Made by a program: the position numbers and the translations under genes. The notes under the pieces are model-generated. The model was not told the origin of the DNA. It saw only the letters and a program-made list of their open reading frames with translations, and did no database searches. Below are positions 43,121 to 51,791 of a stretch of 64,000 bases of DNA, one piece after another (position 1 is the stretch's first letter; the number at the start of each line of letters is the position of its first letter). The DNA comes from Protoeuglena noctilucae (taxonomy: Eukaryota), in contig OY253682.1 in the NCBI GenBank assembly GCA_958009085.1, positions 434,001 through 498,000 of the forward strand, read 5' to 3'.

Positions 43121-46100
43121 CCCAGGCGCGTGCAGCTTGGCCCACCCTCGCCACGGTCACTACCTCGCCCCACGCCGATGTCGTCCTCTCCCTCACCTCC
43201 CTCGGTCCCAACTCCGCCTCTATCGCGGTCTCCGTACCCCCGGGCTTCTTCGGGCAAATCGCGGTCGCGCCCGCCCCCTCCCTCGCCGCCCTGGTTCCGG
43301 GACCCGGCACTGCCCACGTGGGCGGCACCCTCACCCTCTCCACCGACGCCTCCGCTCCTGCCCCGGCGCTCTCCGCGGCTGGGCCCCGCATCCTCACCTG
43401 CGGAGGCACCGCGCAGACCACCCTCAGCTTCGGCAAACCCATTGTCGGGGGTGTGTCTGCCGTGCAGGCCGCCCTGGTCGTGCAGGGCCCGGGCGCAGGG
43501 ACCGACGCGGCCTTCGACGACGCGCGGGGGTCGTTCACGGTTACAGTCACGGCCAATACACCAGAGGAGGTGGTGTATGTGTCAGTGGCATCGGCCAGAG
43601 TGGAGGACGCGTACGGCAACGCATGCCTGGCGACGCCCCAGCCGCTGTCCTTCATGTGCACGGCAGCCACGGTCAGCGGGCAGACCCTCGGCAACGCGGC
43701 CGTCGCCGCTGCCGCCGCCGCCCCCTCGGTCGCGGCTGCGTTGTCGGTCGCGGTCACGGTCGTCGCGGTGCAGGCCGCCGTGGGGGGCGCGGGGGGAGGC
43801 GGGGCCGTGACGGCTGCATTGGCAGTGTCTGCGGCGCGCATCGCAGCCGTGGCAGAGTGAGTGGCGGGTCGTGGCAAGTTGCTGCTGTAATGGTCATGTG
43901 CAGCATGAGTGGGCGCTAGCGGCGATGGTGGGACAAGCCCTTTCTAACCCCCGCCCTTGCAGAGCCATGCAGTCGGTGGGGGGCTGCAACGCGCTTCTCC
44001 CTTCCCTCGTGAGCGCGAGCGTGTCTTACTTCACCGGTGCCGTGGGCACCGCCTTCAACATGGTCTGGCCGGCACCCACGGACGCTCTCGGCAAGCGCCG
44101 CGATGGCAGACACCACCGCCACCAGCAGGCGAGCCCCACCTTGGCCTCGTAAGGCTGTCATTCCCCCACTCCCCGCTTCCTCACCCACACCTCACCGTGG
44201 CTCCCTCGCAGGCAGGAGGCTCCTTGCCACCGGCGGCTCCTCCTCCGCCCTCACCTCCGTGCAGCTGGCAGCTTTGCGCCAGGCGTCCCGGCAGGTCTTT
44301 TGAATCGTCGCCCTCGGCGCTGGCCTCACCGTTGCTCACCTCGTCGCCTTCCTCGCCCTGGGCTTCGACGCCCCGGGTCAGCGCTTCGAGCGCGCCCTGG
44401 GTGCCGTGGCGGGCGCCAGCCACCGCGTCACGCGCGCCGCCTCCCAGCTCAGATACTACCTGCCTCTCGTCTCTGAGAGGTCGATGCCCGTGGCTGCCGC
44501 GCCTGCCGACCCAGAGGCAAGCACCCCGGGGCCAGGCGGCGCCGCTCGCCTGTCCCTCTCAGGCCTCCCAACCCCAGGGCCGGGTGGCGGCGCATCCCTG
44601 TCTTTTTCAAGCACAACGATCCTAAAGTACGCGTCCCCTGCCGCCCTGCATGCGCCCTCCCCCATCGCCCTCTCCTCTCCCTCCGTGCGGATGCGCCCCT
44701 TGGCAGCGCCACGCAAGGGCATGCGCCGTGTGGCACCCCCCCTGCTGTCGTGGCCCAAGCCAGAGCTCTTCCTCGCATCTCTGGTCCTCCCCGTCACCTG
44801 CCAGGCCGCGGGCACGCTCCTCAACCTCCAGGCCTGGCAGGCGGTGCCGGTGGCGGCGTTGGTCCTCCTGGCCCTCACCCTCCCGGTGTTCTTCCTCGGA
44901 CTCGCCCTCGTCACCGCCCTGCAGGTGCGACGGGAGCAAGGAGTGTGCATGCATGCCCGGCTGCGATCCCATGCCTGCCGACCCATGGGCTCTCGCCCCT
45001 CCCCTGCAGCTCGTCGCGTACCCCCAGGAGCGCATTCTGGTCTACGAAGTGACCCCCGAAGAGGCCAGGGAGGCGCGATGGCCCGTGCCCGTGCTGTCGG
45101 GGTTCGGCTTCTTCCGACGCAAGCTGCAGGGAGAGTGGCGCGGCGCGACCCCCCTCGGCCGCTTCCTGGCAGAGTCATGCAGCGTCATCTTCAAGGGACT
45201 CGCGGGGCCAGCCGTGGTGCGCGGCGGGGCCACCTTTGACGTCGATGCCACGGGGCCCGCGCCCATGGACCGGGGAGTGCTGGTGCCGGTGCCAGCGCCT
45301 GTGCGGAGGAGGGCAAGAGACGAGGCAGGGAAGGGAAAGCAGGAAGGAAGGGACGGTGCCTTGCGAGCGGCCGACGCGCGGCGGTGGCAGGCGCTGCAGC
45401 ACGGCGGCCTGCTGACGGCCGTGTACAGGTCCGGGTACAGCCTGGTGGCGCTGGGGCTGATGGGGGCGGCGGCGGCGAGCGGCCAGTCGCAGGTGCCCCT
45501 GGTCCCCACGCTCGCCATCACGGGCATGTCCGCGCTGGGCCTGGCGCTGGACGTGGCCTTCTCCCCCCTCAAGGGCGCTGTCGACCAGCTGATGGACGCG
45601 CTGGGCGCTGTGGCGGAGCTTACGCTCTACACGAGCATCCTGGCGGCGCAGGTGCACGAGGTCAGGAACAGGGGCACCGACAGGGAGAGGCTGCTGTTCG
45701 CCAAGGCCATCTCCCGCTACATCCTGGCGGCGGCCGTCTTTCTCGTCGTCGTGCAGGTGACGATGGGCATGCGTGGCCCGGCGAGCCTCGCCTGTTGCTG
45801 ACTTCTCTCGCGTCCCTCACCGCCCCGCACCCTCGCATGCCCCCAGGTCGTGGGCCAGGTGTACCAGGTGGCCAGCCTCACCGTGCCCCTCTTCCGTGCC
45901 GCCATGCGTTCCCTCCGCCGCATCCATTGCGCCCGCCGCGTCCTGGTCCGCCGTATCATCCGCGAGCCCCACGTGCTGGCCGCCAAGTACGCCAACCGGT
46001 GGGCCAACCGAGTCCTGAGGCGGCCCATACGGGGGTGGCCGTGGCTCGTCAGCGAGGAGGAGATGCAGAGGGCCGCAGAAGCGAGGACGCCCGGCAAGGT

Positions 46101-48333
46101 AGCGGCCACGTTCGTCCAGGACCTGGAGCGGGCCATCGCGTGGTCGGGGTTGGAGAGCGAGGGGCGAGTGCTGAGGGCCCTGCGCGTGCGGGGGAGTGCC
46201 CCGGCCTGGGCGCGGGTGGGCGAGTCCGTGGGGCTGACGGAGGAGGCGCGGCAGGATGCGCTGAGGGAGGGGCAGAGGATCCACCAGCTGCGGCTGGTGC
46301 GGGGCCGGGCCCTGCGGAGGGCCGCCAGGCCCGCTGCCCTGGTGGCCGAGGAGGGCGACGTGGAAGCGTGCCGTGTCGAGGGTGTCGAAGCGGACCTCGG
46401 CGAGGAAGATTCCAAGGGCACTCGGGAACGGGACGAGGGAGCGGAGGGAGACGGGAGCGGGACGGTGGCGCGGGGCCAGCGGGGGAGCAGCGCCATGCTC
46501 CTGCTGCCCAGGGCGGTCGACACGCCGGCCTTCCGGCGCGCTCGACCGGGGCCCCTGCCGGGCATGCTGCAGCGGGCGCGGGCGGCAGTCGCGGGGGTGG
46601 GGGCGATGGCAGCGTGGGGGTGGGGCCGGCAGCGGGGGAGTGGGGGGAGTGCATTGAGCGCAGGGGTTTTCAGCAGCGCGCTGCCCGCGGCGGGGGAAGT
46701 GGAGAGCGGGCACAGAGACAGGGCGGGTACCGGGAACTGGACAGGGAGTAGGACGGACCGCGGCGAGGGTGGCGACGAGGTGGCGGGGTGTCCGGGGAGC
46801 GCGGTGGAGGGGGCATGCGGGGCATGCGGCTGATGGTCAAGAAGCCAAGCTTGGGTCGTGGCGACTGGTCTCGCCCCGGCGTCTCCCCCAGCACTATCTC
46901 GGGCCCCAAGCCTGCCTCCCCAGCCGCGCCTCGGGTCAGGGACCCTGGGCAGCCGGGCTCGGGGGTCAACGACTCGCCGGACTCCGCTGCCCGTGGCACC
47001 GGGTTTGCGTTGCCGAGCCGGGGCCGGGAGGGTGGGACCGGGGACGAGCGTGGCGTGGTGGCGCAGCGTCCCAGTCGTGGCAACAGCGGCATGCGGCTGC
47101 TGATCAAGAAGACAAGTCTGGGCCGGGGGGAGCGGGCCCAGCCCGGCGTCTCCTTCAGCCCGACCGCGAGCCCCATGACTGCCTCTTCTTCAGCCGTCGC
47201 CCGGGGAGGGCCAGGCACCGGCAACCTAACGGACTCCGCTGCCCGTGGCACCGGGTTTGCGTTGCCGAGCCGGGGCCGGGAGGGTGGGGCTGGGGACGAT
47301 CCTGGTGTGGTGGCGCAGTGTCCGGTCCGCGGCAACAGCGGCATGCGGCTGCTGGTAAAAAAGCTCAGCCTGGGCCGCGGGGAGTGGACGCAGCCACGTT
47401 CCTCGCGCCAGGCGCAGCCGGTCCAGGGAGCGGGGGTGGGCACAGCGTCGGCTGCAGTGGCAGGGGAGGTAGGGGGTGGGGATGGATCGGCAAGGGAGGG
47501 CGGCGCCGTGGTCATGCGGCCCAGCCACGGCATCAGCGGCGTGTGGCTGCTCTCCCAGCCCCCCAGGGAGCGCGGTGCGGGCGCGCGCTCGGGGATGCAA
47601 AGGGGCACGCGAGGGCCCCTCAGCCCGCGCGACAACGGGCCCGCCGGGTCCCAGCCGCCGCGAGACGTCCCGCGCACGGGGCTGCTGCCGACGCTTAGCC
47701 TGTCTCGGTAGTGATGATGGCGTGATTCCTATATACCACGAGGTGGTTTTCCGCAGCTGTTTGGATTGCTCAGACGTGATTGCTTGCTTGCCACCATCTG
47801 TTTGCTTTGTCTTGCTGCTACCTCCTTCATGGTCAGAATGCCCCTACTACCGTGTATATACTTTCCTTAACGCTGCCATTTGTGCCTTGTGACGAGCTGG
47901 TGATTGCTTGCATTGCGTCGGTTCCTCTTCTCCATGTTTCCTTTCTTTTGAAACGCACCCCACCAGCACGAGCCGGTCCAACTTCATACAGGAGCCATCA
48001 AGCATGCTTCAGGTGGGAGAGCAACGAGCACCATCGCCTTGCACAATTGCCTTGCCACTGTGGCGCCCCCACGGCCCCGCGGTGCTGGGGCGGAATGTGC
48101 CGCACTTCGAATTCTCCTCCTCGGCCGCCTGGCGTGTGCGTGCGCTGGTGCGCGAGTGGGTGGCCAGCGTGGCGCGCGTGCCAGTCCTCAGTGTCGACCT
48201 GTTGAATGACCCGGACGGCGCGAGGCCGCGGGTTTGCGCGCCTGGGGGGTGCCGGCAGGGGCCAGGGGCGAGTGCGCACGCGTGGTGGACTACCTCCGCC
48301 GCACGGCGGGGGACCCGGAGCGCCCCTAAATAA
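43121..48333 (+). CDS. Putative cell-surface multi-pass membrane protein (Ig-like ectodomain, several TM helices, long repetitive cytoplasmic tail); 5' end unresolved
   Basis: Beta-rich segment (TTLSFGKPI..SFTVTVTA..VSVASARVEDAYGNA) followed by hydrophobic helices. Tail has LAAKYANRWANRVL. Frame break near 46785. Last exon 47967-48333 joins in phase. Confidence 0.6.
46824..47390 (+). repeat. Coding direct repeat, ~252-267 nt period, about 2.3 copies
   Basis: GACTCCGCTGCCCGTGGCACCGGGTTTGCGTTGCCGAGCCGGGGCCGGGAGGGTGGG at ~46980 and ~47232. MRLxxKKxSLGRG starts at 46824, 47091 and 47343. Confidence 0.9.
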
Positions 48334-48423
48334 ATACGTTTACCACCAGTCATGATCCAGGTGGGATGATTGGCAGCAAATGTGCTTGGCAGCACTGTTC
48401 GTGTGGGCTGACGTGCACCGATG

Positions 48424-48858
48424 TCAGCCGCAGCAGGAGCGGGGGCCCGAGGGCGTCTGCACGATGCAGTGGCAGTCTGCGGGTAGCGCAAGAATGCAAA
48501 AAAGGTTTCACACATTATAAACAAACTCGTAGTACGGCATTTGGACACGCATCCTCTCTCACGGACTGCGCCTCGGCTGATGGGGCCCGGTGAAGCTGGG
48601 GGGGTCCAGGAAAGGTAGCGGGATCCTGTCCAGGGCATGTATCGCAGCTGTCTGGGCGCGGAGACGGGCATGACGGCCGAGGGTATGTCTGCGGCGGGGA
48701 GCGCAGCAATTAGAAAGCAGCAGCACCGCAAAAACTTCCCTCGCGCCCGGCCTTGGACGCGCCCGGCCTTGGAAGCGCTCGCCTGCCGCGGTGTTCGCCG
48801 AAACAAGCCACAAGAGGACCGTGAACAGGCTGAAGAGGGCGGAGGCGGGGAAATCCAT
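48424..48858 (-). CDS. Small secreted Cys-rich peptide precursor, 84 aa, 3 exons (not visible as a single ORF)
   Basis: Exons 48858-48783, 48688-48563 and 48476-48424. Introns GCGAGC..CTAAT..CGCAG and GTGAGA..CGCAG. Product: MDFPASALFSLFTVLLWLVSANTAADIPSAVMPVSAPRQLRYMPWTGSRYLSWTPPASPGPISRGAVHCHCIVQTPSGPRSCCG*. Confidence 0.65.
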
Positions 48859-49051
48859 CGTAACTGCCCTCGTTCCCTGAGCAGACGTGGCTTTCTGAAT
48901 TGATGCGGGCCGGCGGATTTTCAATATGTAGCGTCGGCTTGAACTCGTCATAGGCATCTTTTTGGCAGGAGCAGGCTTCAAAAATCAGACGCCAGAGCCA
49001 TGCACTGCAACCCCAAGCTCCCGGCTTCTACCCCCGTTCACAGCGAGCCGG

Positions 49052-51791
49052 CTACTTCTGGCGGTAGAGCCGCAGCTTGTGGTCGGCGGAGCCCACGAAA
49101 ATCGACGCCGCCCGTTCGCCGAACGCCACGGCGTACGTCCCCTTCTCCGGCAAGCCCGTCAGCTCCCCCTGCATGTCCCAGGTCTTGGCCTGGTACACCT
49201 CCACGTTGCCCGCCCCCACCGCGAGGTACTGCGCGGACGCGTCGAAGGCCACCGAGCGGGGGATGCCCCGGCCAGAGAAGTCGATGGCGTGGACGCACTT
49301 GACCTTGCGAAGGTCCCAGATCTGGACGCCAGTGTCCGAAGCCGTTGCCAGGATGTAGCCGTTCTCGCTGCGAGGTCGCGAGAGGATCGACAGCAGGTGG
49401 TTGCCCGGGGGTTGTGCGGCGGCTGGTGCATTCGTCCCTGGCGCAACAAACGTGTACAAATCGGCCTGCTGGGTGTGCAATGCCGAGCGCGTGTTCGCTG
49501 TGATCCGCACCTGAACGAGAGGGAGTGGACGGCGCCGTCCGCGGCAATGGTCGCCGCTGGTGCCGTCTTGCCTGACGGGAGGTCCCAGATCTCCACCGTG
49601 GCAGCCCGCGTGGCGCACCTGCGGCGGATTGCAATCGATATTGTCACTTCCAGTCGTCAGAGACCGAGCCTGGCTGCAGCCGGGTCGCATGCAAGCATGA
49701 CACGCCCCCCGCTGTGCGCGCTGCCCCGAGCGCGCCGCGCAGTCACCCCAGCAGGACCCCGTCTGGGTGGAAACGAGACGAGATGTACTCGGTCGGCGAC
49801 TGGGGATCCGGGGACTTGTACAGCAGCGAGGCGGCCGCCAGGTCGTACAGGCCCCAGATGCCCGACGATGCTGCGAGAGAAATCACATGTGGAGCAGCCA
49901 TTCACAGATCTGCGCTCAATTTAATAAGACTTGTAAGCTACGCAAAGTCTGGAGCTCACCCGACGCGGCGAAGTAGCGTCCCGAGGGCTGCAGGGTCACG
50001 GACGTGACGGCCCCCACCAGGTCGGTCAGCATGGACTTCTGCGAGCCCTCCGACGCGCTCCAGATCCGCACGGTACCATCCGCCGAGCCCGACACTGCGA
50101 GGGAGCGGTCGTGGAGCAGTCAGAGTCCTTAGTTGCAGGTTGGGTGGTCAGGAGCGGGTGCTTGTGCTTGTGCTAGCGCGCCTCCCCGCTCCTCACCAAC
50201 CGAGTCGCCGGCGAAAATCACCGAGTGCACGCGCTTCCCGTGGCCCTTGAGAGTCGCCACCACCTCCTCCTTCCCATAATCGAACACCCGGACCTGCACG
50301 CACCGTCGTTCACGACCGCCTCTCAGCCATCGCCGGGCCAGCAGAGGGCCGCTACATGCGTGGGGTTGCGTTCCAAGCAAGCCGCGAGCGAGGCAGTCGA
50401 GCGCGTCACCGTGCTGTCTTCCCCGGCCGTCGCGACGAGGCTGTTGGCGCCCAGCGCGACGCTGTGGATGCCGCCCTTTGCGGTCGTGTGCACTGCGAGA
50501 GAGAAGTGAGCGAAGCAATGATGTCTGGTAGTGGAGGTGGCGAGGGTGACAGTGTCCCCTAGTCACACGTGTCCCTCTCAGGGTGGCATACCCAGGGACG
50601 ATCGTGAGCAAAGAGCACCGCCCATGGCACTCACCGGGATACGCGACGGGGTCCAGGGACTTGAAACTGTCCGCGCTGGCGGCCGCCTCGGCGGCTTGCT
50701 TGGTGCGCGCCTTGCGGGTGCTCGACAGGCTCTTGCTGCGACACAAGGACAGGAGCGACAACGTTGGGGCATGCACCGCCACCTTGAGAGGGTCATTGCA
50801 GGCCCTGCTTGCACCAGTCGGCGACGCGTGCGACGAAGCCCCAAGTGGACGTAAGGCATAAACCCAACGGGGATAGCAAGGGTTCATGCACCGAACTAGC
50901 GCTGACCTGACATCCACCATGTCGGAGATGGCCTTCGGCGGGATGCCCTCAGCCGCTGGCTTGGCTCGCTTCGCCGGCCGGCCGTCGCCTGCCTCCTCTG
51001 CCGCCTCGGGCACGCCTCGGGCCACCAGCTCCTCCTTTTCCCTCAACAGCCGCGCAATGACACGGCACGCCGCATCGTTCTGGTACAGCGCCGCCGAGAG
51101 CTCCTTGCGCAAACCCTGGAGCTGCTGCCGCAGCTGGAAGGTCTCGAGCATCTGGGTGCGAAACACACGCAATACTGGTCATGGCGACTGCGCGCAGGTA
51201 CTCCATTACGCTGCTTGCCCCCGCTCAGCGCACGCAGACCCACCACAGCGTCCCATTCCGACTGGAAGAGGCTGAGCAGGCCTGGGATCGAGGTCGCCGA
51301 CGCGGGGCGCGGGTTGAGCTTGGCCGGGCCCTTCACGGGCAGCAGATCCTCCTTCGCCAGCGACTCATTCGTGATCGGGCAGGTGCCGTGCTGCGCGGAA
51401 GAAAGCGCACACATCTTCGCAAGGGATGCCAGTGCCGGGGGAGTCGGGCGGGAGGCGAGCGCGGAGGCCGACCGCGAGAACGGCTCGGGACCTCGATGCG
51501 CCCTCTCACCTCCGCAAGGTGCTTCTCAATCACCCTGCGCTCGAAGAGATGCCCCGACTTGGTCGATACGACGGGCTCTTGGGGCACATGCCCCGTGACT
51601 GCGGCGGAGGAACGCGAAGGCCGGCCGCTGAATCCCGCGGGCCCCACGGACGCGCGAACGACATTTGACGAGGCAAAGAACCCGCGACAGCCACAAACAT
51701 AACATGAACAGGCCGCTGAAGCAGTCCATCGCATGGGCCGGGCCACGGGGGCGGCGAGCTCAGGGCTGGGCGCCGCACTTGCGCAAAACAT
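49052..51791 (-). CDS. PRP19: Pre-mRNA processing factor 19 (U-box + coiled coil + WD40)
   Basis: [100 protein letters not shown]. Confidence 0.96.

Follow-up and report, generated by a model that had tools for sequence, protein, structure and literature searches.

A candidate for a hidden spliced gene was recognized on the minus strand of the window, the stretch of 64,000 nucleotides that was analysed, in tandem behind the gene encoding PRP19. The existence of this gene, which would encode a protein with a signal-peptide-like start and a last exon that holds four cysteines and ends in glycine, is statistically supported. It had been put forward in the original prediction, and the strength of its splice sites, its rank among all enumerated models and a run of G/C third positions in exon 3 agree with that proposal. 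We prefer, at even odds, the reading that a marine green alga has here a real orphan gene, single-copy, lineage-specific and condition-specific, whose product is a small disulfide mini-protein that is secreted.

The window, with a GC content of about 65%, is part of contig C15 in a genome of 27 contigs and 26.3 Mb. The neighbours in the window are housekeeping genes and include those for V-ATPase B, a DDB1/RSE1-type protein, SNF2, PRP19, GAS8 and FGAM synthase, GAS8 being a flagellar gene. Nearby is a nuclear psaE, whose best PDB matches are entries that we take to be green-algal photosystem I. Sequence near-identical to the window is present in marine metatranscriptomes, and on these two grounds the host is taken to be a marine green alga. 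The host lineage is isolated in the databases, too much so for a conservation test of the peptide gene: apart from P0021, the alga's own transcript-derived protein, the closest PRP19 shows 43% identity over the last exon, and a metagenome scan for PRP19 gave two loci, both distant.

The genome is rich in small secreted proteins: of the 13 gene models shorter than 200 aa in 264 kb, 5 appear secreted when judged by eye. At C15:340968-352577 (L026 and L027) four genes are clustered whose predicted products are small secreted proteins with Gly/Asn-rich repeats. The repeats are largely placed one per exon, two of the copies are identical and inverted, and RxL motifs occur after the pro-region; the members of this cluster are better candidates for multi-core precursors, or for wall or coat proteins, than the 84-aa peptide. 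The gene L039 (C15:535639-536070) encodes, in two exons, a predicted secreted protein of 114 aa which by eye looks like a cupredoxin.

The three exons of the peptide gene, all on the minus strand, join in frame to give 84 codons, and both introns are in phase 1. Exon 1 (48858-48783, 76 nt) carries the start codon, with A at -3 and G at +4, and encodes the hydrophobic, signal-peptide-like residues 1-25. Intron 1 (48782-48689, 94 nt) is of the GC..AG type, has a CTAAT branch-like motif at 48713-48709 and contains a 16-nt tandem duplication at 48773-48742. Exon 2 (48688-48563, 126 nt) is symmetric, being in phase 1 at both ends, and encodes in order a Pro/Ser/Ala-rich pro-like segment, an RQLR site, a twin RYxxWT motif and a Pro-rich linker. 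Intron 2 (48562-48477, 86 nt) is of the GT..AG type with 45% GC and a strong acceptor, and exon 3 (48476-48424, including the TGA) encodes C-H-C-x10-C-C-G-stop. The sequence thus has exactly the arrangement of three exons in phase, one GC-AG intron with a CTAAT motif and one GT-AG intron that had been described.

The hydrophobic N-terminus of about 25 aa that had been claimed was also recognized, with a Kyte-Doolittle mean of 2.44 over the best 11 residues; it has small residues at -3/-1 and is devoid of a basic n-region. Judging by eye from these small residues, the putative signal peptide is likely to be cleaved after Ala21 or Ala25. The twin R-Y-x-x-W-T motif, at 48603-48644 on the minus strand, is made of two 24-nt units in which 13 of the first 17 nt are identical, and these units are probably an old local 24-nt duplication. 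The strength of the twin motif was equalled in 19 of 5000 residue shuffles, and its pattern has 63 matches genome-wide, two of them at the peptide locus. The cysteines are residues 69, 71, 82 and 83, and Gly84 is terminal, so that the twin motif, the four cysteines in the last 16 residues and the final glycine of the original prediction are all present. With 84 aa and four clustered C-terminal cysteines, the protein has the short length and the even cysteine number of small Cys-rich proteins.

In order to score gene models, splice matrices and codon tables were trained, in a supervised manner, on ten neighbouring genes with 88 introns. The trained model recovered the four PRP19 joints that are seen in RNA, and its PRP19 agreed to 99.2% over 485 aa, with no gaps, with the transcript-derived P0021. 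The 604 nt at 48334-48937 separate the end of the PRP19 mRNA from the next plus-strand feature, and on their minus strand the four sites of the peptide gene are the two best donors and the two best acceptors. When all models with up to three introns were enumerated, the 84-aa model ranked first with a score of 9.3, the runners-up being a 53-aa form whose exon 2 is shorter (9.2) and a 42-aa form that skips this exon (8.5). None of 1000 dinucleotide shuffles scored 9.3, their maximum being 3.0. Among 112 real intergenic tile-strands one scored above 9.3 and none did so with a hydrophobic N-terminus as well; the sole higher-scoring tile holds a spliced gene that resembles what we take to be TOM22. 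The GC donor of intron 1 is ordinary in this genome, because 12 of the 88 training introns, all predicted, have GC donors (GCGAG in 9 of the 12). Both sites of intron 1 lie at the median of the training introns, and the acceptor of intron 2 is equal to or above 86% of the training sites.

The codon usage was analysed exon by exon. Exon 1 has a GC3 of 0.84 and a codon score of +0.03 per codon. Exon 2, which bears the twin RYxxWT motif, has the weakest coding signature of the three, with many rare codons and a non-coding-like score of -0.13 per codon, a level as low as this being found in only 2.8% of 142 coding windows. In exon 3 there are 17 G/C third positions in a row (48427-48475), bounded exactly by the acceptor and the stop codon, and the exon has a score of 0.34 per codon, which no window of 16 codons among 4864 intergenic ones attained. 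A less strict comparison took combinations of strong acceptor and phase in intergenic gaps: of 174, four equalled the summed codon score of exon 3, two of these four belonging to the real TOM22-like gene. The codon score falls off outside the model, to -0.42 upstream of the ATG and -0.16 after the TGA. A plain Markov coding model gave -0.2, -8.4 and -1.0 for exons 1, 2 and 3, none of them positive, and the codon bias of the whole model is 0.02 per codon versus 0.10-0.25 in 9 of the 10 training genes.

Other models of the same DNA were tried and rejected. A plus-strand intron at 48361-48433 with its exon, which forms a competing frame, has a codon score of -0.27, and an in-frame N-terminal extension of 33 codons scores -0.42 and has its ATGs inside the PRP19 3' UTR. 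The frame past the TGA (48340-48423, minus strand) has 27 further codons with several His, one Cys and one Cys-Cys, and selenocysteine read-through of this stop was considered; the score there (-0.16) is non-coding. Rfam gave three matches in all, every one under its gathering score and none a SECIS. One of them is a weak fluoride riboswitch match at 47982-48047 on the minus strand (21 bits versus a gathering score of 34, E 0.0045), which is probably due to chance.

The PRP19 stop codon and 3' UTR (48938-49054, minus strand) lie upstream of the peptide gene, and the distance from that stop to the peptide ATG is 193 nt versus 542-2400 nt in 14 of the 15 tandem gaps of 264 kb. About 100 nt after the peptide stop there is a plus-strand copy of part of a C4 gene exon (48112-48326; source gene L004), which is 88% identical and, at 48220, lacks one base relative to the related transcript; it is a duplicated pseudo-exon within the intergenic gap. 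A convergent plus-strand gene (44300-48035) belongs to no Pfam family and has internal repeats near its end. Its 3' UTR occupies 47712-48035, with the stop at 47711, a TTGAA at 47948 and the end of an RNA contig at 47979. This gene has a paralogue on C12 (L005), with similarity that extends into the 3' UTR, and RNA contigs cover both copies.

The word TTGAA is enriched about 20-fold in 3' flanks, with 1.76 per kb versus 0.09 in introns and 0.06 in CDS, and it occurs within 500 nt of 30 of the 55 gene models in 264 kb (C15:334001-598000). At two genes the RNA contig ends about 30-45 nt after it. TGTAA, which commonly serves as the poly(A) signal in chlorophytes, occurs nowhere in the 500 nt that follow each of the 55 predicted stops, and UUGAA may be the poly(A) signal of this alga. 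TTGAA is found twice after PRP19. Downstream of the peptide gene it was not found on the same strand, searched to 47600, and on the plus strand it occurs at 48202 and 48939.

No splice joint was seen at either intron of the peptide gene in two metatranscriptomes (X1 and X2); two further runs, X9 and X12, yielded no contigs for the region, which counts neither way. X2 contains a spliced, identical PRP19 contig with four PRP19 joints, which ends at 48938, and does not cover the peptide gene. The peptide ORF is therefore not part of the PRP19 mRNA, and the suspicion voiced with the original prediction, that the region is only PRP19 3' UTR, fails, as the spliced contig ends 80 nt before the ATG. 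X1 has zero-difference, unspliced contigs at 47982-48278, 48313-48480 and 48462-48710, the last two of which cross intron 2 and enter intron 1 without splicing. X1 likewise reaches, unspliced, into an intron of PRP19 (50294-50409), and no PRP19 joint occurs anywhere in this run; because of this its cover of the peptide gene may be DNA, pre-mRNA or plus-strand read-through. Splicing of the peptide gene is thus neither shown nor excluded, and there is no detectable expression in the samples examined. The protein collection has the spliced PRP19 of the alga on five contigs. Over the peptide locus it has only an unspliced genomic ORF of 220 aa (P0001), as expected from the earlier claim that gene callers may miss the gene; the spliced peptide is absent from it, and nothing was found there at 22-72 aa.

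The peptide gene is single copy and has no detectable homologues. Searches of its own genome with the DNA and with the exon 2 protein gave the peptide locus itself as sole match, and no paralogue. The pattern CxC..CCG with TRR matched 31 times versus 17 in the control and the pattern YAG with CxC..CC 78 times versus 25; among the 20 of the 31 and the 25 of the 78 matches that were compared as sequence, none resembled the peptide. The best tblastn match in 68 loci (L015, 29.6 bits) was discarded, having no start codon and being equalled by 1 of 40 shuffles, as was a pattern match on C12 at an apparently syntenic place, which is out of frame and inside an unrelated ORF. A word-index protein search confirmed one of three candidates, namely the unspliced ORF of the locus, and gave no homologue. 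Atlas scores were all 0.80 or lower, again with no homologue, and none of 597 stretches of metagenome contigs was confirmed. The four viral pattern matches are all unrelated Trp/Tyr-rich stretches. The viral contigs L047, L048 and L049 have long frames of tandem Trp/Tyr/Arg-rich repeats that match the twin-motif pattern and are unrelated to the locus. The remote searches were made exon by exon, so that a family recognizable only from the complete 84-aa product could escape them. A narrow literature search found no paper on orphan peptides of this kind, small, secreted and cysteine-rich, in marine chlorophytes.

The 19 other proteins matched by phmmer are long and mostly repeat-rich, 13 of them having a motif like that of the fibronectin type III (FN3) domain; three of these matches were rescored and gave at most 9.5 bits per stretch. 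Exon 2 follows P-x-A-P-R-x-L...L-S-W-x-P-P over 27 residues, as FN3 (PF00041) does, and aligns without gaps to strands A-B with 21 bits against a profile built from search hits, a circular test because those hits had been selected by exon 2 as query. Against the same profile, 426 of 500 shuffles gave a reported score, at most 4.9 bits, and exon 2 ranked first among 6393 six-frame segments, ahead of one with 6.7 bits. Of eight PDB matches (best E 0.034), seven are chains of titin, DCC, neogenin and the like, which we presume to be FN3 in nature. Unlike a full domain of seven strands, exon 2 covers a third of FN3; Pfam fn3 has no match to the exons, no second half of the domain was found near the peptide gene, and the one FN3 locus of the genome has no similarity to exon 2. 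We take the resemblance to be either chance or an eroded fragment.

Some of these observations could be explained in other ways. A possible, rather unlikely explanation is that the locus is the decaying remnant of a once-functional secreted-protein gene, from which the C4-derived fragment removed the 3' end or the poly(A) signal, and exon 2 may then be the eroded first half of an FN3 domain. The position of this fragment just behind the peptide stop, the lack of TTGAA downstream on the minus strand, the rare codons of exon 2, the missing transcript, the gap-free alignment to strands A-B and the short gap to PRP19 all suit such a decay. However, the frame is open across the three exons, none of the four splice sites is damaged or weak, and the GC3 of exon 3 is perfect; as to FN3, the circular profile, the silent Pfam model, the missing second half and the dissimilar FN3 locus argue against it. 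We consider it unlikely that there is no gene at all and that splice-like words occur by chance in the 3' flank of PRP19, any transcription being read-through from the plus-strand neighbour. The unspliced cover in X1, the plus-strand TTGAA words and the Markov scores are compatible with this, and the model was picked by eye, post hoc, among many intergenic gaps; but neither the shuffles nor the tile-strands gave an equally strong model with a hydrophobic start, the GC3 run coincides exactly with the ends of exon 3, and the X1 cover, which reads through a PRP19 intron, may be DNA. A very improbable arrangement is that the peptide is the second cistron of a bicistronic PRP19 mRNA, translated via leaky scanning. 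The 193-nt gap on the same strand would fit, and bicistrons occur in green algae, where start codons are under-represented before ORF 2 at leaky-scanning loci according to the report on them (PMC11291117), but the PRP19 contig ends at 48938 and the PRP19 CDS model contains 13 ATG triplets.

Two more specific proposals concern the processing of the protein. A sub-case of the preferred reading, which we hold to be quite improbable, is a prohormone-like precursor amidated by PAM that would serve as a cell-cell signal; it is just as doubtful that cleavage after Arg41, Arg49 and Arg64 would release two Tyr-x-x-Trp peptides and a 19-residue two-disulfide Cys-amide of about 1.95 kDa. The signal-like N-terminus, the repeated motif with its rarity in shuffles and Gly84, an ending open to amidation, speak for such a precursor, and PAM or PHM has been reported in several chlorophytes, namely Chlamydomonas, Gonium, Volvox, Ostreococcus, Coccomyxa and Chlorella (PMC6529398), with an amidated gamete attractant known in Chlamydomonas (PMC6919629). 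On the other side, the 84-aa protein contains no dibasic, furin or G-K/R-K/R site, so that the basic cleavage sites of the original prediction reduce to single Arg residues, and the one R-X2-R (RQLR) fits a rule that holds for 756 of the 771 Chlamydomonas proteins predicted to be secreted (PMC6313938). The terminal Gly carries little information, because 49 of those 771 proteins (PMC6313938) and 4 of 55 gene models around the window also end in it, a base rate of 6-7%. The region of the motif has non-coding-like codons, and a genome search for the PHM families PF01082 and PF03712, of limited sensitivity, gave 0 candidates with silent controls; the same search found seven Brix matches elsewhere and missed the window's own Brix gene. 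With no spliced transcript either, the claim of a prohormone precursor was not sustained.

The other proposal, which we regard as the most improbable of all, is a repeat-core RiPP precursor of burpitide- or dikaritin-like type whose Tyr-x-x-Trp cores would be oxidatively cross-linked. A signal-like N-terminus followed by two aromatic cores in tandem would be in keeping with it, as would the repeated short cores with aromatic residues of split burpitide precursors, such as those of cyclopeptide alkaloids and hibispeptin (PMC11253845). Those cores are flanked by repeated recognition sequences (PMC11253845), whereas the twin cores of the peptide are two adjacent 8-residue units devoid of a separate repeated spacer, and are followed by an extra Cys-rich tail; the word 'algae' does not appear in the available text of that source (PMC11253845). 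No BURP cyclase was found adjacent or in the genome (PF03181, 0 candidates and silent controls in the same search of limited sensitivity), and the 133 window ORFs that were scanned gave no Pfam match to a peptide cyclase, P450, copper-oxidase, PAM or BURP family. The locus is moreover single copy, and the earlier suggestion of a RiPP precursor with YxxW cores is not supported, the motif exon also being the least coding-like one. The only radical-SAM match among the window ORFs is a MiaB-like gene more than 30 kb away.

The layout of the protein recalls other known peptides. Short two-disulfide peptides with a C-C-CC framework exist in animals and likewise have four cysteines in less than 20 residues after a pre-pro region, with an amidation Gly; the likeness would be one of pattern only, and such patterns arise convergently. 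Compared with RALF (PF05498), the C-x-C...C-C spacing is different and no RR precedes the site, only RQLR and RYLS being present, and PF05498 had no match exon by exon or in the genome. As in RALF, there is a signal-like N-terminus, a pro-segment, an R-x-L subtilase-type site and four C-terminal cysteines, and an aromatic motif soon after the site, RYLSW here versus YISY in RALF (PMC12605736). RALFs are absent from green algae according to the same review (PMC12605736), and the likeness is one of layout only. It is quite doubtful that the gene encodes a stage-specific peptide-hormone precursor that reached a RALF-like layout independently, from which a subtilase, cutting at RxL/Arg sites, would release Tyr-x-x-Trp peptides and whose terminal C-C-G would be turned by PAM into an amidated two-disulfide hairpin. 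A nearer comparison in terms of host is the GATI-amide precursor Cre03.g204500, together with other PAM substrates of Chlamydomonas, which are secreted proteins of a green alga with a C-terminal Gly, a residue open to amidation with no need for prior endoproteolysis. With its 94 kDa, the GATI precursor belongs to a gene family, and its amidation was proven by MS (PMC6919629), whereas the peptide is of 9 kDa, single copy, Cys-rich and predicted from sequence, in a genome in which no PAM was found.

Returning to the orphan gene for a secreted mini-protein that we prefer, we infer its secretion, disulfides, processing and role as follows. The gene would be expressed under conditions outside the samples, for example in gametes, in zygotes or under stress. 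The signal peptide would direct the protein to the ER and be removed after Ala21 or Ala25, and the four cysteines (C-x-C...C-C) would either pair into two disulfides, closing a short hairpin, or share the binding of a metal with the His residues nearby. Trimming of the pro-segment by a subtilase may take place at RQLR, and the product of residues 41-84, which would be basic (pI 9.3) and of about 4.8 kDa, could be an extracellular ligand, a defence peptide or a coat component. As exon 2 is symmetric, it could be skipped to give a 42-aa form with only the signal and the Cys-rich part. Amidation of the last Cys would be optional and would depend on a PAM, none having been found so far.

The present value of the gene is that of a testable candidate, a single orphan with no relatives and no expression seen. 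Should it be real, it exemplifies the genes for small secreted peptides that algal annotation overlooks, and its product would be a synthesizable candidate of 19-44 residues for algal cell-cell signalling or defence. If the hormone reading were true as well, a unicellular chlorophyte would have a compact, neuropeptide-style, disulfide-bonded amidated signal. The amidated algal peptides described in the papers cited here come from larger Chlamydomonas precursors, and a compact amidated disulfide peptide would extend this range.
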